DNA of 64,000 nt. Origin: Acidobacteria bacterium bin61 (lineage in GTDB: Bacteria; Acidobacteriota; Vicinamibacteria; Marinacidobacterales; SMYC01). The position numbers and the translations under genes were made by a program. The stretch spans positions 27,027 through 91,026 of the forward strand of contig CAUZCL010000003.1 in assembly GCA_963578475.1 (NCBI GenBank). Direction: 5' to 3'. The notes under the pieces were generated by a model, which was not told the DNA's origin, made no database searches, and saw only the letters and a program-made list of their open reading frames with translations. Numbering within the stretch: position 1 is the stretch's first letter; every line of letters starts with the position of its first letter. Shown piece by piece: positions 7,923 through 51,773 of the stretch.

Positions 7923-7969
7923 CGCAATGCAATATTTAAGAAGAGATCAATATTAAACGTACTCGGAGG

Positions 7970-8782
7970 CTAGATATGGCCTAGGTCCATCTGCTTGACC
8001 GCGTAGTCGCAGGCGCGGGCGGTCAACATCATGTAGGCGATCGACGGATTGACGCAGGATGAGGACGTCATACACGCGCCATCGGTTACGAAGAGGTTCG
8101 GGATGTCGTGGGCCTGATTGTGGCCGTTCAGGACCGACGTCGCCGGGTCGCGCCCCATCCGCGCCGTACCCATCTCGTGGATCGTGAGTCCCGGTGGGTT
8201 GTCTTCAACAAAGCTCGAGACGTCTTTGGCGCCCGAGGCTTCGAGCATTTCCGCCGCGGTCACAGCGGCATCTTCGAGAAGCGCGCGCTTGTTCTCTGAC
8301 CAGGCCATGTGGACGCGAAGCGCCGGAATACCCCATTTGTCCTTGGCGACCGGATCGATCGCCACGTAGTTGTTCTCGCTCGGTAAGCACTCGCCGAGGT
8401 CTTTGTCGAAAGTGTACGGGTTCTCGTCATCGTTGACGAAGAACTTGCTCGACCAATCGTCACAGGCATAGCAGTTCTTTTGAATCGGCTGCGTGCTCGA
8501 TTGACGCGCACGATTGCGGTGCCTTCGGTACGGGAGCTGCCACGGTTGCACATGCTCGACATAGTCCTGCTCGGGGCTCGTGGGACGCCCCGCTTCGAGA
8601 ACGAGTGTCTCGAGCCCTTTCTCGGTTAGCTCCTTGGCGGCGTAGCCGCCGCTGATGCCCGAGCCTACTATAATTGCGTCGTACTCTTTGCGCTGCGCAG
8701 AAATACCATCGTTAAACCTCGATGTTGCGGCCAACGTTATGGATGGGAGTGCAACCTTCATAAGAGCCGGGAAAGACGACAT
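7970..8782 (-). CDS. GMC-family FAD oxidoreductase, unusually short (possible internal deletion)
   Basis: 270 aa; FAD-binding N-terminus DAIIVGSGISGGYAAKE and GMC C-terminal signature HEMGTARMG...NLFVTDGACMTSSSCVNPSIAYMMLTARA. Typical members are about 550 aa, so the middle substrate domain appears absent. Confidence 0.55.
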   Translation of the reverse strand: MSSFPALMKVALPSITLAATSRFNDGISAQRKEYDAIIVGSGISGGYAAKELTEKGLETLVLEAGRPTSPEQDYVEHVQPWQLPYRRHRNRARQSSTQPIQKNCYACDDWSSKFFVNDDENPYTFDKDLGECLPSENNYVAIDPVAKDKWGIPALRVHMAWSENKRALLEDAAVTAAEMLEASGAKDVSSFVEDNPPGLTIHEMGTARMGRDPATSVLNGHNQAHDIPNLFVTDGACMTSSSCVNPSIAYMMLTARACDYAVKQMDLGHI

Positions 8783-9182
8783 GTCCGAGCTCCTGCTCCA
8801 TCCTGATCTCCGATGTGTAGTAGCCCCAGAGCGTGAGCCATTTCATCACACTGAAAAACGGCTGGTCCGCGGGAGAATCGGACGTCGCGACCAGACTCCG
8901 GCTCGTCGCGCGCTCCTCTTGCTCCGCGAGCGCGGCTTCCTCAGCTCTCTCCAGGAGCGCGACCTGCTCGGCCGGATCGTGCTCGACGAACGGTGTTTCG
9001 TCACCGTCGAGCTCCGCCAAACCTTTTCGGAAGCTCGATCGTTCTTCGTCCGTGAACCACTCGGTCAGCATGACGTCGATGAACTCGTTCACGCGCGCAG
9101 CTTTGGCCCCTGGCGTGTCGGTCTCGGGGATGATGAGCTCCGCCATCACGGTAACCATCTCGTTCTGCCTCGTCCAGGTCAA
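8712..9182 (-). CDS. Gluconate 2-dehydrogenase subunit-3 family protein (small subunit partner of the GMC oxidoreductase)
   Basis: 156 aa; AELIIPETDTPGAKAARVNEFIDVML matches the subunit-3 family core. Begins at TTG and lacks the usual Tat signal. The upstream ORF (9183-9534) is in another frame, joined across a C5/G5 run at 9233-9237. Confidence 0.6.
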   Translation of the reverse strand: MTWTRQNEMVTVMAELIIPETDTPGAKAARVNEFIDVMLTEWFTDEERSSFRKGLAELDGDETPFVEHDPAEQVALLERAEEAALAEQEERATSRSLVATSDSPADQPFFSVMKWLTLWGYYTSEIRMEQELGHVVFPGSYEGCTPIHNVGRNIEV

Positions 9183-9534
9183 GACCGGGCGGTCGCGGAT
9201 GGAGAACTCGCCGATGGCAAGGGCGAAGGTCTCCCCCTTGCCTCCGGGCGTGAAGCATGGCGTTACAGGGGTTGATGAAGGCTGTCTTGTAGGTCAGGCT
9301 CACGTTCTTCGGCAAGTGAATGATGCGCTCGTGAGGATCCGTGAAAGGACACGTATTCATGAAGAGGTAATCCCGGATGAGGCTCGTGAGCGCGGCCAGC
9401 GGATGGCCTCCCTCGATTGTAAGGACGCCGACATAGACTCCGAGGAAAAGCGCTAGAATCACTTGGCGCGTGACGACGGCACAGGCGATGGCAACCACAA
9501 TAGGCAGGATCAACCAGACACCGGTATGGTCCAT
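9183..9534 (-). pseudogene. N-terminal membrane-helix fragment; either a NhaC-like remnant or the frameshifted 5' part of the subunit-3 gene
   Basis: MDHTGVWLILPIVVAIACAVVTRQVILALFLGVYVGVL are hydrophobic helices, followed by low-complexity Arg/His-rich read-through. Removing one G from the G5 run (minus strand; plus 9233-9237) fuses this frame to the subunit-3 ORF. Confidence 0.35.
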
Positions 9535-9561
9535 TGGCGCCTATTCTAAGGGAACAGCGCT

Positions 9562-10581
9562 ATGAGCTCAGCCGATTTCGTACGCGCCTTTCCGGACGGC
9601 TACTTTCTCGACGCGGCCAATCTGAAAGGGCTCGAGCGATACGCGCGCCAGCAGGAGTTCATCGGACCCACCCAATTGCTTCATAGCGCTCAAAGAGCGG
9701 GCGAAGGCAACATGAACCTCACCTTGAGGCTCGAGACGGCGGAGAACTCTCTGATTCTGAAACAAGCTCGCCCGTGGGTCGAGAAGTATCCCCATATTGA
9801 AGCGCCCGCGGACCGCTCGCTCGTGGAGGTCGCATTCTACGAGATGGCCGCGAAACGCCCCGCGCTCTGTGACGTAATGCCTCTATTACTAGGAAGCGAT
9901 CCGGCCTCGCGCGTCGTCGCTCTCGAGGATCTGGGGGAAGCCAAAGACTTCACGCCTCTCTACTCAGGTAAGACGCTGACGTGTGCGGAGCTCGACTCGC
10001 TCGTCGCCTATCTCGAGGCGCTTCACACCGCGTGGGAATCTCCACTTCCACCTGTTTTCGCGAATCGAGAGATGCGCGCCCTGAATCACGAGCACATCTT
10101 CCAGCTCCCGCTCGCGAGCGACAACGGTCTCGAGCTAGACTCGTTCACGACCGGACTTCAAGAAGCGTCCGAGGCGTTGATCGCGGATCGAGACTATGTC
10201 GATGCCGTCACCAAGCTCGGAGAGATGTACCTCGCCGATGGCAGCCCGCTCGTCATCGTCCACGGCGATTACTTTCCAGGAAGCTGGCTACGAACGACCA
10301 GAGGCATCCGCATCATCGATCCTGAGTTTTGTTTCACCGGCCCCGCGGCGTACGACGTTGGCGTCATGCTCGGGCATCTCTATCTCGCCGACCAAGCCTG
10401 TGCCGAGGACGTACTCGAGCTCTATCCCAGCAATGACGCGTTTGCGGCGCTCGCGCGCCAGTTCGCCGGTGTCGAGATCATGCGGCGTCTCCTCGGCGTC
10501 GCCCAGCTTCCCCTGAGCTGCGCTATCGAGAGAAAACGCGAGCTGCTCGAGCTGTCACGCGAGCTCGTCCTCTCCGCGTGA
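9562..10581 (+). CDS. Phosphotransferase-family kinase (APH/MtnK-like small-molecule kinase)
   Basis: 339 aa; GEGNMNLTLR nucleotide-loop motif and HGDYFPGSW catalytic-loop motif typical of the aminoglycoside/methylthioribose kinase superfamily. Confidence 0.7.
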   Translation: MSSADFVRAFPDGYFLDAANLKGLERYARQQEFIGPTQLLHSAQRAGEGNMNLTLRLETAENSLILKQARPWVEKYPHIEAPADRSLVEVAFYEMAAKRPALCDVMPLLLGSDPASRVVALEDLGEAKDFTPLYSGKTLTCAELDSLVAYLEALHTAWESPLPPVFANREMRALNHEHIFQLPLASDNGLELDSFTTGLQEASEALIADRDYVDAVTKLGEMYLADGSPLVIVHGDYFPGSWLRTTRGIRIIDPEFCFTGPAAYDVGVMLGHLYLADQACAEDVLELYPSNDAFAALARQFAGVEIMRRLLGVAQLPLSCAIERKRELLELSRELVLSA

Positions 10582-10710
10582 CGCCCGCAGCGCCACCGGG
10601 CTCGTTCTTGCGCTTGCTAGCGCTCATTTTCTCGCGCCGATCTTGCCGCTTCTCATCGAGTCTTCCTCTTGCCGAAGACCATCCCCCGAAGGTACACTCC
10701 CGCAAATAGG

Positions 10711-12429
10711 AAAAGCTCGATGACACGACTCGCAAAGACATTGGCCGTTCTCGCTCTTTTGACTGGCTGCACGGCTCAGGAAGCGAAAGAGCCGGCCGAC
10801 CTCGTTCTTCGAAACGGCAAAGTCGTCACGGTCGACGAAGCACTGCCCGAGGCGCAAGCCGTGGCCGTGAAAGACGGCAGGATTTTGGCTGTGGGAAGTA
10901 ACAGCGACATTGCGGGCCATATCGCCGAAGCGACCGAAGTCATCGATCTCGAAGGGCGTCTCGCGATTCCCGGCTTCATTGAAGGTCACGGGCACTTCAT
11001 GAGCCTCGGCAATGCGAAGATGATCCTCGATCTCACAAAAGTCACGAGCTGGAGCGAGATCGTTGCCATAGTCGGCGACGCTGCGCGCGAAGCCGAGCCG
11101 GGCACGTGGATCTCGGGCCGCGGCTGGCATCAAGAGAAATGGGACGCGATCCCGCCGGGTGCTATCGAAGGTCTACCCGACCACACCGGCCTGAGCGAAG
11201 TGTCGCCGGACAACCCCGTCATTCTCGAACATGCGAGCGGCCATGCCGCTTTCGCGAACGCGCGCGCAATGGAGCTCGCGGGAATCGACGCGAACACCCC
11301 CGATCCCGCCGGCGGGACAATCGTCAGAGGAGCTGACGGCGATCCAACAGGAGCGCTCCGCGAAACGGCGCAAAGACTCGTACGCAGAGTCTTTCAGGAC
11401 TATCTCAACCAGCGCTCTTCCGAAGAGCAGCGCGCGGAGGCCGAGCGGCGCGTAGCGCTCGCGAGCCAAGACATGCTCTCGAAAGGCATCACGAGCTTTC
11501 ACGATGCGGGCGTAGGCTTCGGGACGATCGATTTTTACAAAGAGATGGCCGAGACGGGAAAGCTCCCTGTGCGCCTCTACGTGATGGTGCGGGGCGAGTC
11601 GAATGAGGCGATGGACGAGCAGCTTGCCGCGTACAAGATGACGAACGCCTATGACGGCCACTTGACGGTGCGTTCGATCAAACGGCAGATCGACGGCGCT
11701 CTCGGCGCTCACGGCGCCTGGCTTCTCGACAACTACGCGGATCACGATTCGGCCGGTCTCGTTCTCGAGACCATCGAAGATATCGCCGGCACAGCAGAAG
11801 TCGCGATCAAGCACGGCTATCAAGTCAACACCCATGCTATTGGCGATCGTGCAAACCGCGAAGTGCTCAATATCTACGAGAAGGCTTTCGCCGCCGACGC
11901 GAGTGGCGGTAAAGAGCTGCGCTGGCGAATCGAGCACGCGCAGCACATCGATCCTGAGGACATTCCTCGCTTCTTCCAGCTCGGCGTCATCGCAGCCATG
12001 CAAGGCATCCACTGCACCTCGGACGCGCCGTGGGTCTTCAAGCGCCTCGGCGACGAGCGCGCTGAATCCGGAGCTTACATGTGGCGCGACCTCCTGGACG
12101 CTGGTGCCATCGTCACGAACGGCACCGACGTCCCCGTCGAAGACGCCGATCCGCTCGCGAGCTACTACGCCACCGTCACCCGCATCACGAAGGACGGCAA
12201 TGCTTTTTTTCCCGGCCAGGCGATGACGCGCGAGGAAGCGCTCGAGTCCTACACGCTGAGCAACGCCTACGCCGCGTTCGAGGAAGACGTCAAAGGCTCC
12301 ATCACGCCGGGAAAGTATGCCGACATCACCGTGCTCTCGAAAGACATTTTGACCATAGAGGCCGAAGAAATCCTGGAGACGGAAGTCGTCTACACGATCG
12401 TGGGTGGCAACGTCCTCCACGCGCCGTGA
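10711..12429 (+). CDS. Amidohydrolase-family (metal-dependent hydrolase, amidohydrolase_3-like) lipoprotein
   Basis: ATG at 10711 gives MTRLAKTLAVLALLTGC lipobox. HGH metal-binding motif (FIEGHGHFMS) and C-terminal amidohydrolase fold motifs. Confidence 0.8.
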   Translation, partial: KSSMTRLAKTLAVLALLTGCTAQEAKEPADLVLRNGKVVTVDEALPEAQAVAVKDGRILAVGSNSDIAGHIAEATEVIDLEGRLAIPGFIEGHGHFMSLGNAKMILDLTKVTSWSEIVAIVGDAAREAEPGTWISGRGWHQEKWDAIPPGAIEGLPDHTGLSEVSPDNPVILEHASGHAAFANARAMELAGIDANTPDPAGGTIVRGADGDPTGALRETAQRLVRRVFQDYLNQRSSEEQRAEAERRVALASQDMLSKGITSFHDAGVGFGTIDFYKEMAETGKLPVRLYVMVRGESNEAMDEQLAAYKMTNAYDGHLTVRSIKRQIDGALGAHGAWLLDNYADHDSAGLVLETIEDIAGTAEVAIKHGYQVNTHAIGDRANREVLNIYEKAFAADASGGKELRWRIEHAQHIDPEDIPRFFQLGVIAAMQGIHCTSDAPWVFKRLGDERAESGAYMWRDLLDAGAIVTNGTDVPVEDADPLASYYATVTRITKDGNAFFPGQAMTREEALESYTLSNAYAAFEEDVKGSITPGKYADITVLSKDILTIEAEEILETEVVYTIVGGNVLHAP

Positions 12430-39539: not shown

Positions 39540-40966
39540 TCAACGCTGGCTTTCGAGCTGTGCCAACGGGCCGGCGTAAGCGGTAAAGTCGATGTGGTGA
39601 GTCACCGCGTCCTCGACCTCGCTCCTTTGGAGAATCTCCGTCATTACAACGCCTGTCGCGCTCGGAAGATTGAGCCCGAGTAGGTGCGCGATGGCCGGAG
39701 CGACGTCGAGGTTCCGAACGTGACCGACCCGCTGGCCGCGCGATTCCCACACCCGAGGCGACGAAGGCCGGGTACATGCGGGGATGGGACGGCAGGTACC
39801 CGTGCCCGTGATAGGCCGTTGCCCGAGGCCGACGCTCGGTGGACGAGCTCTCCGCGTCCGCGACCGGGAAAGTCTCGATATCGCCGACGATCGCGTATTG
39901 GCCTTGGACGTGCGGGTCTTCCTCGTAGCGCGGGAAGCCGAGGTCGTGAAAATCCTGGGGTCGAAGGATGCGCGCGACACCGCGCAGACTGAGCGCCTCT
40001 TCGAACACGCGCTCGAGCACCGCTTCGTCGCGCGCGAGATCCGCGGCTTCAACGTACAGGGACCAGCCCGATCGCATGAGGCGTACACGGTCGGCAAGCC
40101 CGTATGTTGGAAGAGTGGATGCAGATTCACTTCGTGGCGCACGGTGTGGAAGCCGTGATCGGAAACGATGAAAAACGTTGTTTTGTCGGAGAGCCCTGCC
40201 TCGTCAACCGCCCGCATCAGGATGCCGACGGCGTTGTCCGCGGCGGTGATCGCCTCTTTCGACCGGTAGTGGTCGGGTCCGTACGCGTGTTGGATCTCGT
40301 CGGTGACAAGGAAGTGAATCGCGAGAAGCTGCGGCCGGTAGCGTTCGAGCACATAGGCTGCCGCGTCGGCGAGGATGGCATCCGCGACGCCTTTGCGATT
40401 CCGATCCATGTACCACGCGTAGTAAAGTCGATCGGGATGCCAGCTTTCCTCAGCTCTTCGAGAAAAGCAGGGTCCGCCGCCTTCGGGTCAGCCGTGTCTC
40501 CGTCGAAGACTTCGGGAATGTTGTAGTCGATCGAAGGGTCTTGATAGTTCTCGGGCCAATAGAAAGCGGCCGTTATCAACCCTTTTTGCTTCTCCGCATT
40601 GAAAATAGTGGGAACGCGCACGGATTCCGTGTGCGGCTTGTTGGTGAAGTGAAAGCGCTCGCCCGTCTCTCGGTTGACGACACGGTTCCCCACCACGCCG
40701 TGCACGCGCGGCATCACACCCGTCACGAGCGTCGTGTGGCTAGGATGCGTCAGGCTCGGATAGACCGTCTCGCTGCTCTTCGCCCAAACGCCGGTCTCGA
40801 TCAGCTTGCGGATGTTCGGAAGCACGAGCTCGCGATCGTCGAGCTGATAGGTCGCGAGCCCGTCGATCGAAACGAGCACGACGTGCTCCGGCTGAGCCCC
40901 GGCGCCGGCCGCGAGCGCCAGGAAAGGAAGTATGAGGTAGCGCCTCACCACGTCGGACTTTAACAT
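39540..40966 (-). pseudogene. Nucleotide pyrophosphatase/phosphodiesterase (alkaline-phosphatase superfamily, NPP-type) with at least 3 frameshifts
   Basis: Consecutive conserved blocks lie in three frames: signal and VVLVSIDGL...THPSHTTLVTG (40217-40966); LLAIHFLVTDEIQHAYGPD...FFIVSDHGF (39540-40409 frame); RATAYHGHGYLPSHP (40077 frame); and GHVRNLDVAPAIAHLLGLNLP...* (back in the 39540 frame). Confidence 0.6.
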
Positions 40967-40972
40967 AGCAGG

Positions 40973-41566
40973 ATGCTCGCGCTCGCCTTACTCCTCGCGG
41001 GGCCTTTGACTCTGGAGGTTCCGATCTATCTCGGCGCCGAGCTCCACGAAGAAACGCTCATGAACGCGCTCCGAGAGACCGCACGCATTTTAGAGCTGGG
41101 CGACATCCAGCTTCGCTTCGACGTCTCCCCGGACCAGTCAACGACCCGCCCGCTCGTAACGGTGAGCGTACAGCCACGGCCGGCTCGCTTCAAAGTGCAT
41201 GGATGCAGCCGCGACCGCCACGACCACCGGCTCGGCCATACTCATCTGCGCTCACGCCGCATTACCCTCTGGTCGGAGCAAGTGGCGCGCGCCGTTGACG
41301 GGAACTGGGACGGCAAAGAGCTCCCCAATGTCAACGAGCACACCTATGCTCGTGCGTTAGGCCGGGTCCTCGCCCATGAGCTCGGCCACTTGCTCCTACG
41401 CCTGAACGGGCATCGCGACCGAGGTCTGATGCGGTCCGCTTTCTCGCATCGAAGCTTGACCGCGCGCGGACGCCGCGCTTTTCGCTTCGCCGAGGAAGAT
41501 CTGCAGGCGATCCGAGAGACGCTTCTGCGAGCACATCTCGCAAGAGCTGACCGTTGCGCACATTAA
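40973..41566 (+). CDS. Hypothetical secreted protein with an HExxH motif (putative zinc-dependent peptidase-like)
   Basis: N-terminal hydrophobic signal MLALALLLAGPLTL. VLAHELGHLLLRLNGHRDRGLM contains HExxH...H. No confident family assignment. Confidence 0.4.
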   Translation: MLALALLLAGPLTLEVPIYLGAELHEETLMNALRETARILELGDIQLRFDVSPDQSTTRPLVTVSVQPRPARFKVHGCSRDRHDHRLGHTHLRSRRITLWSEQVARAVDGNWDGKELPNVNEHTYARALGRVLAHELGHLLLRLNGHRDRGLMRSAFSHRSLTARGRRAFRFAEEDLQAIRETLLRAHLARADRCAH

Positions 41567-41569
41567 GTC

Positions 41570-42660
41570 CCGGAGACCCTTTCCACGAACCGCATCAGTT
41601 GTTCGCCGTCGTCGCGCGCGATCCGTTCGTCGAGCACACGATCCTGGGCGGAAAGGACGCGGTCGCGTAGCTCCGGATCCGTCACCAACAGATGCGCGAT
41701 CTCGTCGATCTCGTCGATTTTTTCTCGTGCAACAAAATACCGCCCCCACCAAGCGTCTCACTGACGGCCCCCGTGTCATAGGAGATGACGGGAACACCCA
41801 TCTCGTAGGCTTCGAGCAGGGGGGGCGCAGAACCCTTCGTGCTCGCTCATACACAAGAAGACGTCGGCGACGCGATAATAGGCGACGAGCTCTCTGGTGC
41901 TCACGCGACCGGGGAACTCGACGTTCTTGAGATCGAGCTCGTAGGCGAAACCAACGAGAGATTCGTAGTAGCGCTCGAAGTCGCGCCATTCGCCAACGAA
42001 GATGAGTCGGCACTTCCTATCGATGAAGCGCTGGTAGTATTTGACGACCTTCATGACGTCTTCGAGACGCTTGTTGGGGATGACGGGTCCAACGAAGAGG
42101 AAGTTCGTCAAGTCGTCGCCGAAGAGCGCCTCCACCACCGGGCTCGGGGACGCCGCCAAACGCTCGGGATCGGACAAAAGCGGGAGGACGCCCGTAGGCT
42201 GAAAACCCAGCTCTTCGAGCTCGCTTCGGTTGTACTCGGAAACACCTAAAGCGAGTGCGGTGCGCTCCGCGAACGTCGCAAGCTCCTGCCGTCCGCGCAC
42301 GCATTGTCGGGCAACTTTGGGCGCGAAGTCTGCGAACCAGTGAGCGGGCGTGATGTTGTGGTAGCGAAGCAAGAGCCGGTCGGGAAGCTCTCGCGCGAGC
42401 GAAGCGCTCTTCTAGCCGATTGCAAAATGCAGCAGCAAGACGTTGTCCGGCGATGACACCGACGGGTATTCGGAGAGCTCTCGGCCGCGCCCCGACATCG
42501 CCGAGTCTGTCGACTCGGCAAAGATCTCGGATTCCACGCCGTGGGATCGAAGCACCGACTGGATTCGGAGTGCCTCGTTTCCGATGGCATCACCGAAAGT
42601 CAGTGAGGCCACCATCTGATGAACGAGCATCGAACGACGCCATCTTGTCACCTTTCTCAA
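41570..42660 (-). pseudogene. GT4-family (GT-B fold) glycosyltransferase with two frameshifts, one in a G7/C7 homopolymer
   Basis: N-terminal MVASLTFGDAIGNEALRIQ...LLLHFAIG (42412-42660), then FLFVGPVIPNKRLEDV...ADVFLCMSEHEGFCAP (41776-42372), then C-terminal ...LLEAYEMGVPVISYDTGAV... in a third frame after the run at 41819-41825. Confidence 0.55.
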
Positions 42661-42754: not shown

Positions 42755-43852
42755 ATGACGAAGCTAGGCATCACGAGTGCTCTCTTGTTCGCGCTCGTAG
42801 CAACATGTTCAGGCATCGCGATGGCCGAACCGGTCCCCGCGGACGGCGGTCCTCAGTTTCAATCTATCGGACCGCTCACGTTTGGCCCGGACGGTATTCT
42901 CTTCGCCGCCGATAACAAAGCAGCAAGGATTTACGCCATCGACCTGGGTGACCACGCGGCCGGCAAGACCGCGGGCGCTGCGGACACCGAAGCCATCGAC
43001 CAGAAGATCGCGAGCATGCTCGGCACGGATGCGCGCGAGCTCACGATCACCGACCTCGCCATCCACCCTGAATCTCGAAACGCCTTTTTATCGGCGCAGC
43101 GGGGCCAGGGAGATAACGCCCAAGCCGTCTTGCTCCGTGTCGACGGTGCCGGCGAGATCTCTGTCATCTCGCTCGCACAGCTGAAATACACCTATGTCGA
43201 GATCCCGAACGCACCCGAGGCCAACCCGACCGCGCGCCGCGATCCTCGCAAGGCGACGATTACGGACATGGCCTATACCAGCGGGCGGGTCTTCATCGCG
43301 GGCCTTTCGAACGAAGAGTTCGCGTCGAAGCTGCGCTCGGTGAAATATCCGTTCGACAGCCTCGACGGCGGCACGAGCGTCGAGATTTACCACGGTGCCC
43401 ACGGCGCATGGGAGACGCGCTCCCCTGTTTACACTTTCGTCCCTTACGAAGTCGACGACGAGCCGCACCTCATCGCCGGCTATCTGTGCACGCCTCTCGT
43501 CAAGTTCCCAATCAGCAAACTCGAGGCTGGCCAAAAGCTCGTCGGCACGACGATTGCGGAGCTAGGCAATCGCAACCGCCCCCTCGACATGGTCGTCTAC
43601 TCGAAGGACGGCAAGGACTTCATCCTGATGTCCAACACGAGCCGCGGCGTCATGAAGATCCCGACCGACGGGTTCGGCTCCCAGGCGGGCATCACCAAGC
43701 CCGTCGACGGCGAGAAAGAGGGTGTCAGCTACGAGACCATCACGGCGATGACGGGCATCGAGCAGCTCGACCTCTTCGATGACAGTCACTCCATCGTTCT
43801 CGCGCGCACCGATTCCGGTTCGCTGAATCTCGAGAAAGTCGCGCTTCCGTAA
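42755..43852 (+). CDS. Secreted protein of unknown function
   Basis: 365 aa; signal peptide MTKLGITSALLFALVATCSGIAMA. No recognisable family motif. Codon usage and periodicity consistent with coding. Confidence 0.6.
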   Translation: MTKLGITSALLFALVATCSGIAMAEPVPADGGPQFQSIGPLTFGPDGILFAADNKAARIYAIDLGDHAAGKTAGAADTEAIDQKIASMLGTDARELTITDLAIHPESRNAFLSAQRGQGDNAQAVLLRVDGAGEISVISLAQLKYTYVEIPNAPEANPTARRDPRKATITDMAYTSGRVFIAGLSNEEFASKLRSVKYPFDSLDGGTSVEIYHGAHGAWETRSPVYTFVPYEVDDEPHLIAGYLCTPLVKFPISKLEAGQKLVGTTIAELGNRNRPLDMVVYSKDGKDFILMSNTSRGVMKIPTDGFGSQAGITKPVDGEKEGVSYETITAMTGIEQLDLFDDSHSIVLARTDSGSLNLEKVALP

Positions 43853-43863
43853 GGAGCTTCGCA

Positions 43864-44931
43864 TTGGAAAGATGGCGGCGTCGCCTCGCGTGCGGCGTCG
43901 CCCTTTTTTTTGCGCCCTGGGCGAGCGCCGGGCAGGCGGAGATTCGAGTCTCTCTCGTCGACGGACAGGTCGAGATCGCGGGCCTTACGATTGAAACGAT
44001 GGAGGCGGGGGCTGCGCGCGTCCGCGTCTCGGTCGGACCCGACGCTCCGGCGATCCTCGGTGAGTATCGCATCGCCGGTGGGCGCCTCTACTTTCAACCC
44101 ATGTTTCCTTTCGATCCGGGGCGTGAATACTTCGTCCGCGTCGACGGTGGGCGCGAGCCTTTCGTCGCCACGGTGGCGCTCCCAGCGCGAGACTTGCAGC
44201 CCACGACAACGGTCACGCACATCTATCCTTCGACCGACACGCTTCCGGAGAACCAGCTCAAGTTCTATATTCACTTCTCGGCGCCGATGGCGGGCGGCGA
44301 CGGCCTTTTGTTCGTCAAGCTTCTAGACGCGAGTGGAGAAGTCGTGGTCGATCCGTTCCTGCCTCTCGGCAACGCCTTTTGGGGTCGCGACCACCGACGC
44401 TATACAGTGTTCTTCGATCCGGGCCGCGTGAAGCGTGGCATCCTACCCAACGAAGAGATAGGTCGGCCAATCCTCGAGGGACCACGCTATGTGCTCGTCG
44501 TCGACCCCGCGTGGCGAGACGCAAAAGGCGTACCGCTCGCGGAGCCCTTCCGCAAAGCGTTCATTGCCGGACCGCCCGACGAGACACCGATCGACCCGAA
44601 GTTGTGGACGCTCACACCGCCGCGAGCCGAAACGCGGGAGCCGCTCGCGGTAGATTTTCCCGAACCCTTGGACCGAGCCGTCCTCGCCCGCGCGCTCGCG
44701 GTGGAGAACGTCGACGGGGAGATCGAGATCTCGCGGGACGAGACGCGCTGGTCGCTCATCCCAGAAAAGCCTTGGCAAGCGGGCACATACCATCTCGTAG
44801 CACTCACGATCCTCGAGGACCTCGCCGGGAATCAAATCGGGCAGCCCTTCGAGGTCGATGTGTTCGCGCGCATTGACAGCCCCGACGACGACACCGAGAC
44901 GCACCGCCTGCCGTTCGTGGTGCGAGACTGA
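43864..44931 (+). CDS. Secreted protein of unknown function (probably co-transcribed with the preceding gene; 11-nt gap)
   Basis: 355 aa; hydrophobic N-terminus LACGVALFFAPWASAG. No family recognised. Confidence 0.55.
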   Translation: MERWRRRLACGVALFFAPWASAGQAEIRVSLVDGQVEIAGLTIETMEAGAARVRVSVGPDAPAILGEYRIAGGRLYFQPMFPFDPGREYFVRVDGGREPFVATVALPARDLQPTTTVTHIYPSTDTLPENQLKFYIHFSAPMAGGDGLLFVKLLDASGEVVVDPFLPLGNAFWGRDHRRYTVFFDPGRVKRGILPNEEIGRPILEGPRYVLVVDPAWRDAKGVPLAEPFRKAFIAGPPDETPIDPKLWTLTPPRAETREPLAVDFPEPLDRAVLARALAVENVDGEIEISRDETRWSLIPEKPWQAGTYHLVALTILEDLAGNQIGQPFEVDVFARIDSPDDDTETHRLPFVVRD

Positions 44932-44933
44932 AT

Positions 44934-45839
44934 CTACTCCGTCTCGATAAGCGCTAAAAGAGCCCAGCCCGTCGTCGAAATGTACTGGGCGTAGCTTATC
45001 TGCCCTGCGGGCCGTGTCGTTTCCGGCCAGCTTCCATCATCGAGCTGATTCTCGAGCAAATAGCGTCGTCCCGCCTGCACTTTGTCCTCATGGCCGCCGA
45101 CACGCGATAAAGCGAGGATCACGAGCGCGGTGTCGAAAGGCTCGGCCGCAGAAGTGACGTAGGGTCCCCATCCTCCCGAGGGCGCGTGTCCGGCCGCGAT
45201 CAGCTCCAGGCACTTCTCGCGCTGGACGATAGCGGCCGCGTCTTCCGCTTCGGCAAGGGCAGCGAGGACCGCGGCGGCCGCGAGCACGGTCTTGACTTCG
45301 ACATCGCGAAAAAAACGATAGGTGCGATCGAGCTCAGCGGAGAACCGTCCTGAGTCCGCAGCCATGAGCACACGCTGGGCGACCGATGTGGCGAGAAAAG
45401 TTCCATAGGTCGCGGGCGAGCCGATGCTGCCGCTCACGTCTAGCTTCCACGAGCCGTCGGGCTTTTGGTCGGACGCCACGAGCACGGCCGCGCGGTCGAG
45501 CGCGCTCTCATCTTCGATGAGGCCCACATCGATAGCATCGAGCAGCGCGCTCGCGAACTGGATCCGCGCGAGCACTTCGTCGCTGAAGGCATCGGCTCCT
45601 TTTTGTTCGGACCATCCCGCGGGGTCCGCAAGCCAATCGACCGTGACGCGCATCGACTCCGGAGGCACCGCGTGCCCCGCACGTCTGGCGGCGAAGAGCG
45701 CCCGCACCGCATCACCATTGTTGTGGCACGAAAAGCATTGGTTCTCCGCGGGCCAAGCCGGCACCTCACGCGACAGAAACGCGATCGCGCGCTCCTCGGC
45801 GGCGCCGAGGGCAAGTAAGAAGAGGAACGAATGAATCAT
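44934..45839 (-). CDS. Prenyltransferase/squalene-oxidase (PFTB-type alpha-alpha toroid) repeat protein with an N-terminal CxxCH motif
   Basis: 301 aa; signal-like MIHSFLFLLALGAA. CFSCHNNGD (CxxCH, c-type haem-binding consensus). Repeated QxxDGSW motifs (DQKPDGSWK, NQLDDGSWPE). Confidence 0.65.
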   Translation of the reverse strand: MIHSFLFLLALGAAEERAIAFLSREVPAWPAENQCFSCHNNGDAVRALFAARRAGHAVPPESMRVTVDWLADPAGWSEQKGADAFSDEVLARIQFASALLDAIDVGLIEDESALDRAAVLVASDQKPDGSWKLDVSGSIGSPATYGTFLATSVAQRVLMAADSGRFSAELDRTYRFFRDVEVKTVLAAAAVLAALAEAEDAAAIVQREKCLELIAAGHAPSGGWGPYVTSAAEPFDTALVILALSRVGGHEDKVQAGRRYLLENQLDDGSWPETTRPAGQISYAQYISTTGWALLALIETE

Positions 45840-45880: not shown

Positions 45881-46826
<946 letters not shown>

Positions 46827-46837
<11 letters not shown>

Positions 46838-47765
46838 CCTTGCCTTTGCCTTGCTCGCAGCAACTACGGGTCAGGCGCAAGACTACCCCGCTGCGCGCCG
46901 CGACGTGCGCCACATCATCCCTTGGGGCGCTGGCGGCGCCACCGACACGGCGATGCGCGGGTTCATGCAGTATTTCGAGAAACACCTCGGGACGTCGGTC
47001 GTCACCGAGAATATCCCCGGAGGCTTGAGCGCAGTCGGCCTCCTGCGCCTCAAGATGGCGCGGCCCGACGGCTATACGATCGGCACCTTGACCTATGATG
47101 TGCTGACATTGTCGGCACAGGGACTCGTGCCGATAGCGTGGGAGGACTTCGAGCTCATCGGCATGGTCACGGAGCATCCGAGCGCGCTCATCGTTCGCGC
47201 GGAGCGCTTCCAAACACTCGAAGTTTTTCGTGAAGAGGCTGCCGCTGGGGCGCGGCTCAAAGTCGGGAACGTGGGTACGGGCGGCATTTGGCATCAGCAT
47301 GCCGCGGCGATGGAGAAGGCTCTCGCGATTTCTCTCACGCACATCCCCTACGAGGCCGGCTCGGGCGCACAGCTCACAGCGCTTCTCGGAGGCGAGGTCG
47401 ACGCGGCCGTGGCAAGCTTACCCGCATCCTTACCGTATGTGCATGAAGGCACCTTTCGGGTCCTCGCGGTAATGTCCGAGGAGCGCGACACGCTCGTGCC
47501 CGATGTGCCCACGTTTCGCGAGAAAGGGTTCGATATCACCCATGGAGGCTTTCGTGTGCTCGCGGTTCCGAGGCGCACCCCGGAAGACGTGCGCCGCCAA
47601 CTCGAAGCGGCGCTTCGCGCGGCCTGGAACGACCGCACGTTCCAAGCGTGGGCCAAAAAAGCGGTGATCGGCGCTCGTTTTCGCGACGCGAACGAGACAC
47701 GTGTTTATCTGCGCGACACAGCGGCGAAAGTCGCTGCCCTCATGAAAGTGCTGGAGCTATCATGA
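46827..47765 (+). CDS. tctC: Tripartite tricarboxylate transporter substrate-binding protein (Bug/TctC family)
   Basis: 312 aa; signal peptide. IIPWGAGGATD and the overall Bug-family pattern. Confidence 0.8.
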
Positions 47766-49425
47766 ACGGAAGCGAAGCCATTGTCCGAACGCTCCAGGGC
47801 CTCGGGGTCGAAGTGTTTTTCGGTCTCTGCGGCGACACGACCTTGCCTCTCTACGAGGCTTTGTACGACATCCACCATGGGATGAGGCACGTTCTGACGC
47901 GCGACGAGCGTTCGGCCTCCTTCATGGCCGACGCCTATGCGCGCTTCAGCGGCCGTGTCGGCGTGTGCGAAGGGCCTAGCGGCGGCGGTGCAACCTACAT
48001 ACTGCCTGGCGTTGCGGAAGCGAATGGCTCGTCGGCCCCGCTCGTCTGCCTGACGAGTGACATTGCTCAAGCGGATGTGGGACGGGGCACGCTGACCGAG
48101 CTCGACCAAAACAGTCTCTTCCGGCCGGTCACCAAAGCGACCTACTCGCCGTCATCAGCTGCCGTAGTATCGCGTGTTCTGCACGACGCTTTCCGCACCG
48201 CGACTTCCGGTGCGCTCGGCGCAACGCATGTGAGGCTCCCCTTCGACGTCCAGACCGGTAACGCCGGCTCCGAGCTGCACATTCGCGAGGGCGGTGACCG
48301 CTACCCTGCCTTTCGGATGGATCCCGAGCGCGAGCTCGTCGAGAAAGCCGCGCGCGTGCTTTCGGAGCCGAAGCGCCCACTCATTATTGCCGGCGCGGGT
48401 GTGGTGCGATCGGGCGCATGGGACGAGGTGACGGAGCTCGCCCATCGCCTCGGCGCTCCGGTGGCGACTTCGATTGGCGGCAAAGGCAGCATCGCGGAAA
48501 CGGATCCCTATGCGCTCGGTGTGATCGGAAGCAATGGCGGGCTTCCCTACCGTCATGCGTTCGTTCACAGCGCGGACGTCATCTTCTATGTCGGTTGCAG
48601 CCTGGGGTCGGTGACGACGGAGAAGTGGACGCTCCCGCGAAACGGCGAGCATCGCATCTTGCAGCTCACGTCGATCCCGAGAAGCTCGGTCTCAACTACG
48701 ACACCGAGCTCGGGATCGTCGCTGATGCGAAACGTGGCGTCGCGACCCTTCTCGAAACGCTTGCGCCGTCTACGAAAGTCGATCCGGCCGAGCTCGAGTG
48801 CGAGCGGACGCTTTATCTCGCAAGCGTCGAGGACACGTTTACTTCCGACGCGATGCCCATCCGGCCCGAGCGTTTTCTCACGGAGCTCCTTCCTCGTCTG
48901 CCGGAGACGTCCGTCATCTGCGCGGACCCGGGTACGGGTTGCCCGTAGATGTCCGCGTATTACCGATTGCCTCGAGCGGGTAGGTGGTTCGTCTCGGCGC
49001 GGGCCCACGGGGCGCTCGGTTACGCGCTTCCCGGTGTCGTCGGCGCGTACTTCGCGCGCCCCGACGCGGAGCGCGTCGTCGGGCTCATGGGCGACGGGTC
49101 CTTCGGGATCTCATGTGGCAAGCTCGAGACGATCGTGCGTTTGAATTTGCCCGTAACCCTCGTCGTCTTCAACAATCGAAGCTTTGGCTGGATCAAAGCG
49201 GGCCAGCGCGTGCGTGGCGAGAAGTATTACTCGGTCGACTTCAGCGACTCCAACCACGCCGCGATCGCCGAAGCATTCGGGATACGGGCGCGCCGTGTCG
49301 AGAGGCCTGCCGAGCTCGCGCCCGCCATCGAGGAGAGCCTCGCGAGCGACGGTCCTTATCTGCTCGACATCGTCACGCAGCCGCTTCACGAAGCGAAGGC
49401 GCCAGTGTCGAAGTGGATAGCGTGA
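47762..49425 (+). pseudogene. TPP-dependent enzyme (acetolactate-synthase-like/sulfoacetaldehyde-acetyltransferase-like) with one frameshift (about 48663) and one in-frame TAG (48946-48948)
   Basis: N-terminal Pyr domain MNGSEAIVRTLQGLGVEVFFGLCGD. Middle domain continues in frame 48418-48948 (HVDPEKLGLNYD...), then TAG, then the TPP-binding C-terminal domain (GLMGDGSFG...FNNRSFGW) 48949-49425. The ATG overlaps the tctC stop. Confidence 0.6.
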
Positions 49426-49471
49426 TCCGTATTTCGATGGAGCATTCGGCATTCAGCATTCAGCATTCAGG

Positions 49472-49873
49472 TTGATGCGGGACGGAGTTTCTGGGGCGGG
49501 GCTGGTTCTTCTTTCCGTCTTTTATTTTCTTGCGGCTCGGGGGCTTCCTTCCGGCAGGGGTGAGCCAGGGCCCGTTTTTTTTCCCACGCTTCTCAGCGGC
49601 GTTCTTTTGGTTCTCGGTCTCGTCATTCTTGTTCGGGGGTGGCGTTCGAGTGGCGGTGAGGGCGGGCGGCGATCGTGGTTGGTTATCGGCATCACGGTTC
49701 TTTACGCCGTCGTTTTTTCATCCATCGGGTTTGCGATCGCTACGGTTCTCTATAGTGGCGCAGTCGCGCTCGTGCTGGGGCGGCGGGGGTGGGGCGTCCT
49801 CTTGTTCTCGGCAGCCGCGACAGCTTCCATCTATTTTATCTTTGGTCTTGGGCTCGGGGTGCCGCTTCCTTGA
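49472..49873 (+). CDS. tctB: TctB-family small membrane subunit of the tripartite tricarboxylate transporter
   Basis: 133 aa, 4 predicted TM helices. Position between tctC and tctA. Confidence 0.55.
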   Translation: MMRDGVSGAGLVLLSVFYFLAARGLPSGRGEPGPVFFPTLLSGVLLVLGLVILVRGWRSSGGEGGRRSWLVIGITVLYAVVFSSIGFAIATVLYSGAVALVLGRRGWGVLLFSAAATASIYFIFGLGLGVPLP

Positions 49874-51303
49874 CGCTCGCGGCGCTCGGTTTTCTTACCG
49901 GAGGCGTGGCGCTCGGGCTCGTCGTGGGGGCTATTCCGGGCTTGACCGCGACGCTTGCTATTGCGCTTCTTCTGCCGTTTACGTTCTCGCTCGAGACGGT
50001 CGACGCGCTGCTCGCGCTCACGGGGATCTATGTCGGCGGCATCTATGGCGGCTCGATCACGGCGATCACGGTGCGTATCCCGGGAGCGCCTGCCAATACG
50101 ATGACGCTTCTCGACGGGCATGCCATGGCGCGGGCCGGTCGTACGGAGGAAGCACTTGGGCTCGCGACGTTCAGCTCATTTGTCGGCGGGATCGCTGGAG
50201 GCATCGTCCTGGTTTTGTTTGCGCCGCAGCTCTCGCGTCTCTCGCTCGAGTTTCAATCCCCGGAAGTCTTCTCGCTCGTCGTCTTCGCACTCGTCGCGGT
50301 CGCGGCCGTCAGCACCGGTCCGCTCACGAAAGGTCTGGCGGCAACAACCCTTGGACTCATGCTCTCGACCGTTGGGCTCGACCGGCTCGTCCCGGTGAGC
50401 CGGTTTTCCATGGGAGCTCCGGATCTCTTCGCAGGCATCCCGCTCCTTCCGGTCGTCATCGGACTGTTCGCGCTGAGCGAGCTGTTCTGGCAGGCGGGCG
50501 AAAAGATCACCTCCCTCGAGAAACTCGCGATCGAGTGGCGACGCGTGTTCGATTTCATACCGACCGTGAAGCGCGTAGGGTTCGCGCTCTTCGCGAAGAG
50601 CGCCGTGATTGGCGCTTTCGTGGGTGCGCTCCCCGGTGGTGGGGCAGCCATGAGTGCCTTTCTCGCCTACACCGAAGCGAAGCGGAGCTCACCGAATCCC
50701 GACGCGTTCGGAACCGGCATCCCCGAAGGCATCATCGCGCCCGAGACCGCCAACAACGCGATGACGGGCGGCGCTTTCGTGCCAATGCTGGCCTTTGGCA
50801 TCCCGGGTGACGCGGTTACCGCGGTGATCCTAGGTGGTCTCATCATCCAAGGTCTGACACCCGGCCCAACCCTCTTCCGTGACGCGGGCGACGTGATGAC
50901 GCCTTTTTTCGTCGGCTATTTCCTCGCTTACGTGCTCGTCCTCGTGCTCGGGCTTGCTCTGCTGCCGTGGTTCGCGCGGCTCGCGACCATCGACCGCAAA
51001 TATTTGCTGCCGTTCATCGGTTCGGTGTCACTCGTCGCTGCCTATGCGTCGGAGCGGACAGCGTTCGCTATGGGCCTGACCGTCGCGATTGGCATTTTCG
51101 GCTATACACTGCGACGTTTCGGCTATCCGCTCGTGCCGGTCCTGCTCGGTCTCATACTCGGCCCACTCCTCGAGACAAATTTTCGGCGATCCCTCATGCT
51201 CTCGGAAAACGGCGCGTGGATCTTTGTCTCGTCGCCGCTGAGCGCAGTCTTACTCATTGGCGCAGCAGTGCTCGCGATCTATTTCGCCCGGCAGAACCGC
51301 TAA
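49870..51303 (+). CDS. tctA: TctA-family large permease subunit of the tripartite tricarboxylate transporter
   Basis: TTG start overlapping the tctB stop. Conserved TctA N-terminal region LTATLAIALLLPFTFSLE...GIYVGGIYGGSITAI...GAPANT. Confidence 0.8.
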   Translation: MTLAALGFLTGGVALGLVVGAIPGLTATLAIALLLPFTFSLETVDALLALTGIYVGGIYGGSITAITVRIPGAPANTMTLLDGHAMARAGRTEEALGLATFSSFVGGIAGGIVLVLFAPQLSRLSLEFQSPEVFSLVVFALVAVAAVSTGPLTKGLAATTLGLMLSTVGLDRLVPVSRFSMGAPDLFAGIPLLPVVIGLFALSELFWQAGEKITSLEKLAIEWRRVFDFIPTVKRVGFALFAKSAVIGAFVGALPGGGAAMSAFLAYTEAKRSSPNPDAFGTGIPEGIIAPETANNAMTGGAFVPMLAFGIPGDAVTAVILGGLIIQGLTPGPTLFRDAGDVMTPFFVGYFLAYVLVLVLGLALLPWFARLATIDRKYLLPFIGSVSLVAAYASERTAFAMGLTVAIGIFGYTLRRFGYPLVPVLLGLILGPLLETNFRRSLMLSENGAWIFVSSPLSAVLLIGAAVLAIYFARQNR

Positions 51304-51430: not shown

Positions 51431-51773
51431 TTCTGCGGACGGCGCGCCGGCGAGGTTCAATCAGGTGAAGACTAGCGGTTCGATTACCCAGAATCAGCTT
51501 TCATCCGTGCCGCCTTTCGTCTTCTACTAGCAATCTTCGGTGGATAAAATCTGACCCGTAGACACGCTCCGCCTGCAGTAAATTGTGTTGCGGGCATAAA
51601 AATTGAAGCAATCGCTCATCGTTTCTGCGATAGATGGCGAACGGCGCCCCGTGGTCGATGTGCAGTCCGGCCCGCGCAGTACACCTCGTCCCTCCATCGC
51701 GCACGACGCGCGCCCCCCAATTCCGCACAGTGACACGCTTGTAACATCCCCGTCGAATCGATAGATTATCTCG

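Follow-up and report, generated by a model that had tools for sequence, protein, structure and literature searches.

A conserved extracytoplasmic gene module in Acidobacteriota that joins a predicted beta-propeller and an Ig-like protein to a QW-repeat barrel with a candidate haem c motif

Do three neighbouring genes for exported proteins, one of them a terpene-cyclase-like barrel carrying a CxxCH motif, belong together, and what might that motif hold? The question is raised by a stretch of 64,000 nucleotides (nt) from Acidobacteria bacterium bin61 (contig CAUZCL010000003.1), hereafter the window, whose first letter is position 1. On its forward strand lie open reading frame (ORF) 1 (42755–43852, 365 amino acids (aa), ATG start) and, after a gap of 11 nt, ORF2 (43864–44931, 355 aa, TTG start); P3 (44934–45839, 301 aa) is encoded on the reverse strand and converges on them, with the stop codons of ORF2 and P3 tail-to-tail and 2 nt apart. 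The Shine-Dalgarno sequence of ORF1 (TAAGGAG) is placed 8 nt upstream of the ATG, while that of ORF2, also TAAGGAG, runs across the ORF1 stop codon with its GGAG 7 nt upstream of the TTG. The original prediction, made from the letters of the window, had described two co-directional ORFs of these sizes with this gap, followed by a convergent protein with CFSCH near its N-terminus; the coordinates and strands proved exact, and the motif is located at residues 35–39 of P3.

Comparison across genomes shows that the trio is a conserved extracytoplasmic module, within which ORF1 and ORF2 are tightly coupled as a pair. A scan of GTDB with the ORF1 alignment as query (one genome per species) returned 80 loci spanning Vicinamibacteria, Bryobacterales, Terriglobia, Gemmatimonadaceae, Planctomycetota and two contigs labelled Cyanobacteriota, and ORF2 lies directly downstream of ORF1, on the same strand, in 66 of the 73 loci with room for it. 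P3 occurs within the flank in 27 of 61 GTDB loci and is convergent in 26 of these 27, at a median distance of 96 nt from ORF2 (under 250 nt in 21 of the 27). A second set, anchored on P3, comprises 80 loci from JGI metagenomes, 43 of them with at least 1.5 kb downstream; ORF2, mostly together with ORF1, adjoins P3 in 31 of the 43, and in 14 of the 19 at 45–50% P3 identity. Random neighbours, which the original prediction had named as the finding that would speak against its module, are not what is seen, as P3, ORF2 and ORF1 keep their convergent arrangement between flanks that are unrelated, both in Vicinamibacteria and elsewhere in the Acidobacteriota. Three loci with P3 identities of 56–63% (L008, L009 and L010) have wholly different flanks, and P3 is met in each by two convergent genes (about 365 aa and 333–406 aa), which alignment identifies as homologues of ORF1 (63–77% identity) and ORF2 (51–59%). 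When the ORFs of 83 loci were clustered all against all, no other neighbour family reached beyond 13 loci, and those that recurred were ordinary (amidohydrolase, kinase, FtsX and PQQ_2). Over the triad loci the divergence of ORF1 from the window co-varies with that of P3 (Spearman 0.61, p 7e-4), which is consistent with long co-inheritance.

Export was judged with a rough hydropathy criterion, not with a trained predictor, on the window proteins and 120 listed homologues of each. A signal-like hydrophobic N-terminus is present in ORF1, ORF2 and P3 of the window and in 117 (ORF1), 109 (ORF2) and 108 (P3) of the 120 homologues, and the signal peptides that had been predicted for ORF1 and ORF2 are to this extent (hydropathy only) borne out. 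Lipobox-like N-termini occur in 65 of the 120 ORF2 homologues.

The module also appears to be maintained in the window itself, where it had been described as intact among decayed neighbours and, on that ground, as selected. Alignment of the window to a sister contig (L003), which is 98.7% identical to it and in which the genes neighbouring the trio are intact, contains nine small indels over about 12.6 kb, up to position 51,537. Six are inside ORFs (three in the phosphodiesterase/sulfatase gene, two in pfk and one in the gene of a thiamine-diphosphate (TPP) enzyme), two are near or within the glycosyltransferase gene and one is intergenic; none falls in ORF1, ORF2, P3 or the TctABC genes. The indel-free state of the trio is not significant alone (about 0.08 by a simple length argument) and would be insufficient by itself; constraint is concluded because the ratios of nonsynonymous to synonymous substitution (dN/dS) against three relatives are low, at 0.09–0.16 for ORF1, 0.22 for ORF2 and 0.17–0.23 for P3. 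All three genes are under purifying selection, as had been claimed, and ORF1 evolves most slowly.

What kind of protein is ORF1? Structure prediction followed by Foldseek, the check that the original prediction had proposed for both members of the pair, gave a model that is all-beta with about 24 strands in six groups (AlphaFold2; predicted local distance difference test (pLDDT) 83, predicted template modelling score (pTM) 0.85), so that ORF1 models as a roughly six-bladed beta-propeller. The PDB matches of this model are all propellers, of a generic kind (template modelling (TM) score 0.3–0.45), and include NHL proteins, the lactonases Drp35 and RPA3624 and glucose dehydrogenase, but also scaffolding propellers (a component of the Bam complex, WD40 and NHL proteins). 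No Pfam or NCBIfam family was found for ORF1 or for 15–20 diverse relatives, the only matches being sub-threshold ones to ScyD/ScyE and DUF4221 (for one distant relative a weak ScyD/ScyE match with E 2e-4 and 21 bits, the cut-off being 80), and a PDB sequence/profile search returned no relative. The family is large, with more than 7394 homologues at E ≤ 0.001 and, in an exhaustive search, 2183 clusters at 50% identity (540 of these at E ≤ 1e-30), mostly from soil and marine Acidobacteriota, Gemmatimonadota and Planctomycetota. A 614-aa relative (P0151) was considered as an ORF1-ORF2 fusion and rejected, its extra N-terminal sequence being unrelated.

The conserved polar residues of ORF1 comprise D53, D100, H213, H216, E220, C245 (the single Cys), E269 and D278. 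Among 102 representatives of 30–58% identity, D53 is kept in 97%, H213 in 95%, C245 in 92%, E269 in 91%, E220 in 90% and H216 in 88%, and we infer from this conservation that the Asp/His/His/Cys/Glu set may be a catalytic or metal site. The HGAH motif (His213-x-x-His216; window 43391–43402, forward strand) would be part of this candidate site. Six-bladed propeller hydrolases and lactonases have a Glu/Asn/Asn/Asp calcium site. ORF1 is like the SGL/NHL/Drp35/RPA3624 group and ScyD/ScyE in fold size and blade number but differs from them in lacking membership of any Pfam or NCBIfam family, in TM-scores of 0.45 or below and in its His/His/Cys set, which is unlike the lactonase-type calcium site.

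The same matches bear on a non-enzymatic alternative, according to which ORF1 and ORF2 would be an envelope or adhesion pair, a TolB/BamB-like propeller scaffold on a stalk of Ig-like domains. The ligand of the conserved polar residues would in that case be a structural ion, and P3 a binding protein that has nothing to do with the pair. The scaffolding propellers among the Foldseek matches of ORF1 agree with this alternative, as do the likeness of ORF2 to adhesion-type Ig chains only and the failure of Pfam and NCBIfam to detect a cofactor-binding family. A single Cys, two His and acidic residues maintained over such divergent sequences are, on the other hand, more typical of a catalytic or metal centre, and ORF1 is the slowest-evolving gene of the three; we regard this alternative as improbable.

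For ORF2 the AlphaFold2 model (pLDDT 79) consists of three consecutive Ig-like beta-sandwich blocks, and Foldseek matches it to multi-Ig chains of the PDB and to the bacterial Ig-like domains of L,D-transpeptidases; ORF2 is, as modelled, a protein of three tandem Ig-like sandwiches. Pfam places Big_5 at its C-terminus below the cut-off (19.8 bits against 23.6), PF13205 (Big_5) is precomputed for most of its homologues, and the sole relative in a PDB sequence/profile search is 2yn3, the structure of a bacterial Ig-like domain. The claim that neither member of the pair has a recognisable family is therefore kept for ORF1, which has no Pfam or NCBIfam family, and given up for ORF2, whose fold class is recognisable. 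While the C-terminal domain resembles Big_5/BIg proteins and the whole chain models as Ig-like sandwiches, ORF2 differs from those proteins in scoring below the Pfam cut-off, in a highly conserved, family-specific insert of the middle domain (DPFLPLG..FW....RYTVFFDPGRVKRG) and in a conserved loop of the last domain, LEDLAGNxIGxPFEVDVF (residues 318–334), which lies in a region of low model confidence (pLDDT below 50 for residues 320–340). Conservation in this loop is higher in loci with P3 than in those without (L320 0.92 against 0.27, D332 0.98 against 0.47 and F334 0.95 against 0.37), a comparison confounded by phylogeny, and the loop is a weak lead to an interface with P3. At the 5′ end of ORF2, in the part coding for the signal peptide, a terminator-like hairpin (43874–43911) has 11 pairs, nine of them G-C, followed by T8, and might reduce expression of ORF2 relative to ORF1; the total of terminator-like sites across the region is not above that of shuffled sequence.

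P3 had been described as an alpha-alpha toroid with QxxDGSW repeats, and the family searches agree. Pfam assigns SQHop_cyclase_C (PF13243) with 31.7 bits, above the gathering cut-off of 26.1, NCBIfam gives repeat-level cyclase matches only (TIGR01787, 42 bits against 322.7; TIGR01507, 26.6 against 431), and in the PDB profile search squalene-hopene cyclase (1gsz, E 6.5e-17) is matched through its QW repeats only. More than 1121 homologues exist, and motif and residue counts were made on the 120 listed, down to 50% identity. In these the repeats Q125..G129xW131 and Q265..G269xW271 are at least 98% conserved, Tyr145, Tyr227 and Tyr283 are conserved and Cys210 is kept in 92%. Judged from its repeats, P3 is a single QW-repeat alpha/alpha barrel of about 300 aa. 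Class II terpene cyclases (squalene-hopene and oxidosqualene cyclases) share this signature with P3 but have about 630 aa and two barrels, whereas P3 has 301 aa and roughly one; P3 scores far below those families, is exported, carries an invariant CxxCH that cyclases lack and is without the DxDD proton-donor motif, which is absent from the window protein and present in five of the 120 homologues.

It is this CxxCH that sets P3 apart. The CFSCH of the window protein (Cys35-Phe-Ser-Cys38-His39; 45723–45737, reverse strand) is a candidate site for covalent attachment of haem c and the sole CxxCH within a credible long ORF of the whole window, one further match falling in a likely shadow ORF. The motif C[FY]SCH is present in 120 of 120 listed homologues and in 79 of the 80 metagenome loci, within an invariant block EVPxWxxxNxC[FY]SCHNNGD, and about 20 residues separate it from the signal-like segment; a motif inside the cleaved signal or poorly conserved, which had been named as evidence against the original prediction, is not what the family displays. 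The residues preceding it (RAIAFLSREVPAW) are like the helix-plus-loop of a QW repeat, and because of this resemblance the motif would open the following inner helix, directly after the first repeat and near the mouth of the barrel. For bacterial maturation machineries of system I and system II an exported CxxCH is nearly sufficient. Since these systems need little else, covalent haem on the CxxCH is the most likely reading of P3. The requirements of haem c maturation have been reviewed (PMC3601427; PMC8112865).

A chain of proposals follows that joins the three proteins, and as a whole we hold it tentatively, at slightly less than an even chance: an enzyme with a propeller fold, an Ig-like partner and P3 as an accessory haem c protein. 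Catalysis would fall to ORF1, probably as an enzyme that depends on a metal or cofactor, and ORF2 would serve it as scaffold or membrane tether, a role suggested by its being a lipoprotein in many lineages. Once P3 had been exported by the Sec route, its CxxCH would receive a covalent haem from the cytochrome c maturation system, and this single haem c would lie where an inner helix begins, by the opening of the central cavity of the barrel. Because no Met or second His is conserved, the sixth position of this haem would be open or unusual: the iron may have five ligands only, a Tyr as the sixth, or a sixth that a partner or substrate provides. Such a haem suits ligand binding or catalysis better than simple electron transfer. 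In this scheme P3 would be an accessory redox or ligand-handling subunit, whose barrel binds a ligand or docks to the ORF1-ORF2 pair and passes electrons to or from it.

Several observations weigh against this chain, some concerning the proteins and others the locus. The enzymatic role of ORF1 is argued from residue conservation only, because its propeller matches are generic (TM-score 0.45 or less), and it is by repeat register that the motif is placed near the cavity of the barrel. The N-terminal 92 residues of P3 contain no cytochrome c domain beyond motif-level matches to Cytochrome_CBB3 (E 0.065–0.13; 13–14 bits, cut-off 27), and the PDB holds no significant cytochrome match to this segment (best E 2.3). 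Across the 120 homologues no column with a distal Met or a second His reaches 60%. No experiment or structure with haem was found for any member of the P3 family, and no cytochrome c maturation genes (Ccm or Ccs) are visible in the window. Haem c proteins can, however, do without a distal Met or His. A possible haem ligand supplied by a partner was sought as a His, Met or Cys of ORF1 or ORF2 that is conserved only beside P3; none was found, and the differences seen are confounded by phylogeny.

These protein-level results also bear on the main rival to haem, in which the CxxCH would be a Cys2-His site for zinc or a similar metal at the mouth of the barrel, LanC-like, that binds or activates a thiol or lipid ligand and carries no electrons. 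LanC-type cyclases bind zinc through Cys, Cys and His, and the beta subunits of protein prenyltransferases (e.g., farnesyltransferase) through Asp, Cys and His. The QW repeats place P3 in the same broad alpha/alpha-toroid fold class, its invariant trio is exactly two Cys and one His (C35, C38, H39), neither a cytochrome c fold nor a distal haem ligand is detectable, and the conserved C210 offers a further Cys. LanC-like cyclases and prenyltransferase beta subunits are nevertheless cytoplasmic and draw their ligands from different helices, whereas P3 is exported, has its would-be ligands in one contiguous CxxCH and bears no sequence similarity to them, its PDB profile search (E up to 1) returning no LanC or prenyltransferase chain. 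Most P3 homologues begin with a signal-like segment, and a CxxCH that leaves the cytoplasm normally has haem attached to it; zinc sites built on thiolates are seldom found in the periplasm, which is oxidising. C210 does not count as an obligatory ligand, since about 8% of homologues have another residue in its place. A zinc site is on balance quite unlikely.

At the level of the locus, what counts against P3 as part of the chain is its looser linkage. In 34 of 61 loci ORF1 and ORF2 occur without P3 nearby, and P3 occurs without them in Gemmataceae and other lineages (at 50–55% identity in several); being convergent, P3 is not co-transcribed with the pair; and cytochrome genes are not enriched beside pairs that lack P3. 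Alternative cytochromes were sought in such loci and set aside, the few CxxCH proteins or fusions of a pyrroloquinoline quinone (PQQ) domain with a cytochrome (L045, L057, L061, L063 and L070) being inconsistent. From the partial linkage it follows that ORF1-ORF2 is the conserved core and P3 a frequent but dispensable third member. Some genomes carry ORF1 paralogues without ORF2 or P3, and because ORF1 comprises paralogous subfamilies the P3-linked share of ORF1 loci understates linkage within the orthologous group. Chromosome OZ240205.1, for instance, has two ORF1-family genes, one (L027) with ORF2 and P3 and one (L042) with neither, and another contig likewise has two such genes (L062 and L085).

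Could P3, then, be functionally independent, its adjacency a matter of gene order inherited within Acidobacteriota and the real module ORF1-ORF2 only? Besides its frequent absence from ORF1-ORF2 loci and its solitary occurrence elsewhere, P3 is on the opposite strand and abuts pfk on its own strand, the pfk stop overlapping the P3 start in L003. In close relatives (L005 and L007 compared with L006, 86% P3 identity), whose contigs are collinear apart from this, a segment of glycosyltransferase, ORF1 and ORF2 (about 7000–11400 of the locus) faces P3 in either direction; where this polymorphic segment is inverted, ORF2 and P3 no longer meet tail-to-tail. Against independence, the adjacency survives a change of every other neighbour, is found in most P3-anchored loci down to 45% identity, usually with the short gap given above, and holds across an insertion sequence. 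It also occurs in contigs labelled as other phyla, the two binned as Cyanobacteriota (L018 and L025) having a complete triad with ORF1 of about 60% identity, near the acidobacterial versions, which suggests mis-binning or horizontal transfer. Independence of P3 is accordingly judged unlikely. The locus with the insertion (L091) has a DDE transposase (8372–9715) between P3 and ORF2, with the triad otherwise kept, and upstream of P3 a 1039-aa DUF7133/HEAT/cytochrome c protein, of a type which we take to be common in Planctomycetota and Verrucomicrobiota.

How, returning to the haem c reading, does the trio compare with known systems? P3 is like c-type cytochromes in having a CxxCH after a signal-like N-terminus and differs from them in its motif being set in an alpha/alpha barrel, with no detectable cytochrome c domain and no conserved sixth Met or His. 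A loose, works-like analogy can be drawn between a propeller, a non-catalytic partner and a haem c protein and the Mxa/Xox sets (MxaF/XoxF-MxaJ/XoxJ-MxaG/XoxG) or quinohaemoprotein amine dehydrogenase. ORF1, in contrast to PQQ dehydrogenases, has about six blades and not eight, only 365 aa and no PQQ family match; P3 is not a class I cytochrome and is convergent and optional, and no conserved gamma subunit or radical-SAM gene lies nearby. Membership in the kind formed by a PQQ dehydrogenase and its dedicated cytochrome is excluded, ORF1 having no PQQ match and the wrong number of blades. PQQ enzymes near some loci are variable neighbours only: in L009, L010, L061, L063 and L086 the module has propeller dehydrogenases of the PQQ-dependent type a few kb away or less, an association too irregular to call, and those of L061 and L063 have one CxxCH each.

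A bolder form of the proposal is that P3 represents a new structural class of c-type haemoprotein, with a single, covalently bound haem c at the mouth of the barrel, acting with ORF1-ORF2 in a widespread, uncharacterised periplasmic oxidative pathway of Acidobacteriota and neighbouring phyla; this we consider doubtful, though not far-fetched. The sixth position would be open or Tyr-ligated, the barrel would take up a glycan or a hydrophobic ligand (isoprenoid, quinone or lipid) as the target of P3, and ORF1, with its Ig-like partner, would be an unrecognised propeller enzyme of the His/His/Cys type.

The surroundings of the trio in the window are of some interest in their own right. A marine metagenome contig from JGI (Ga0310121_10000231) and Logan contigs of related runs match the window with 99.99% identity (one mismatch over 12,906 compared bases), and the closest named genome, a metagenome-assembled genome of Candidatus Marinacidobacterales (Vicinamibacteria, Acidobacteriota), has an ORF1 of 95% identity. 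Relative to L003 the phosphodiesterase/sulfatase, GT4 glycosyltransferase, PFK and TPP-dependent enzyme genes are frameshifted (39540–42660, 45881–46837 and 47648–49425). These neighbours look like real recent pseudogenes, because the JGI contig shares the identical frameshifts, as do Logan contigs that were assembled separately (L001, L002 and L004), and because substitution density is about twice that of most intact neighbours, mismatches to L003 amounting to about 15 per kb in broken genes and 3.6–11.2 per kb in intact ones; assembly artefacts were rejected on the same grounds. Upstream of P3, beyond pfk, lies a TctC-TPP enzyme-TctB-TctA cluster (46827–51303), a tripartite tricarboxylate transporter with an embedded thiamine-diphosphate enzyme, which is kept in close relatives and in the window is frameshifted in the TPP enzyme only. 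Between the broken phosphodiesterase and glycosyltransferase genes, an ORF of 197 aa (40973–41566) has a zinc-protease-like HELGH motif and no Pfam hit on record; an unannotated 196-aa gene of similar size adjoins the phosphodiesterase/sulfatase gene in L008.

The module had been put forward as undescribed, and the searches agree: ORF1 has no assigned family, the PDB sequence search found no solved structure for the trio beyond repeat- or domain-level matches, and a full-text literature search found no paper on any of the three proteins or on their combination. PDB profile and literature searches likewise returned no described example of a CxxCH haem motif embedded in an alpha/alpha barrel. 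Each of the three folds is familiar in itself, as is the CxxCH motif. If haem is indeed bound at the CxxCH, P3 would extend by one fold the few protein architectures that carry covalent haem and would link the terpene-cyclase/prenyltransferase barrel to redox chemistry, a link of which no description was found. The module is small, well delimited and open to simple expression experiments. Because the ORF1 family comprises more than 2000 clusters (at 50% identity) without annotation, a function for ORF1 would annotate thousands of 'hypothetical proteins' in bacteria that are abundant and poorly cultured.

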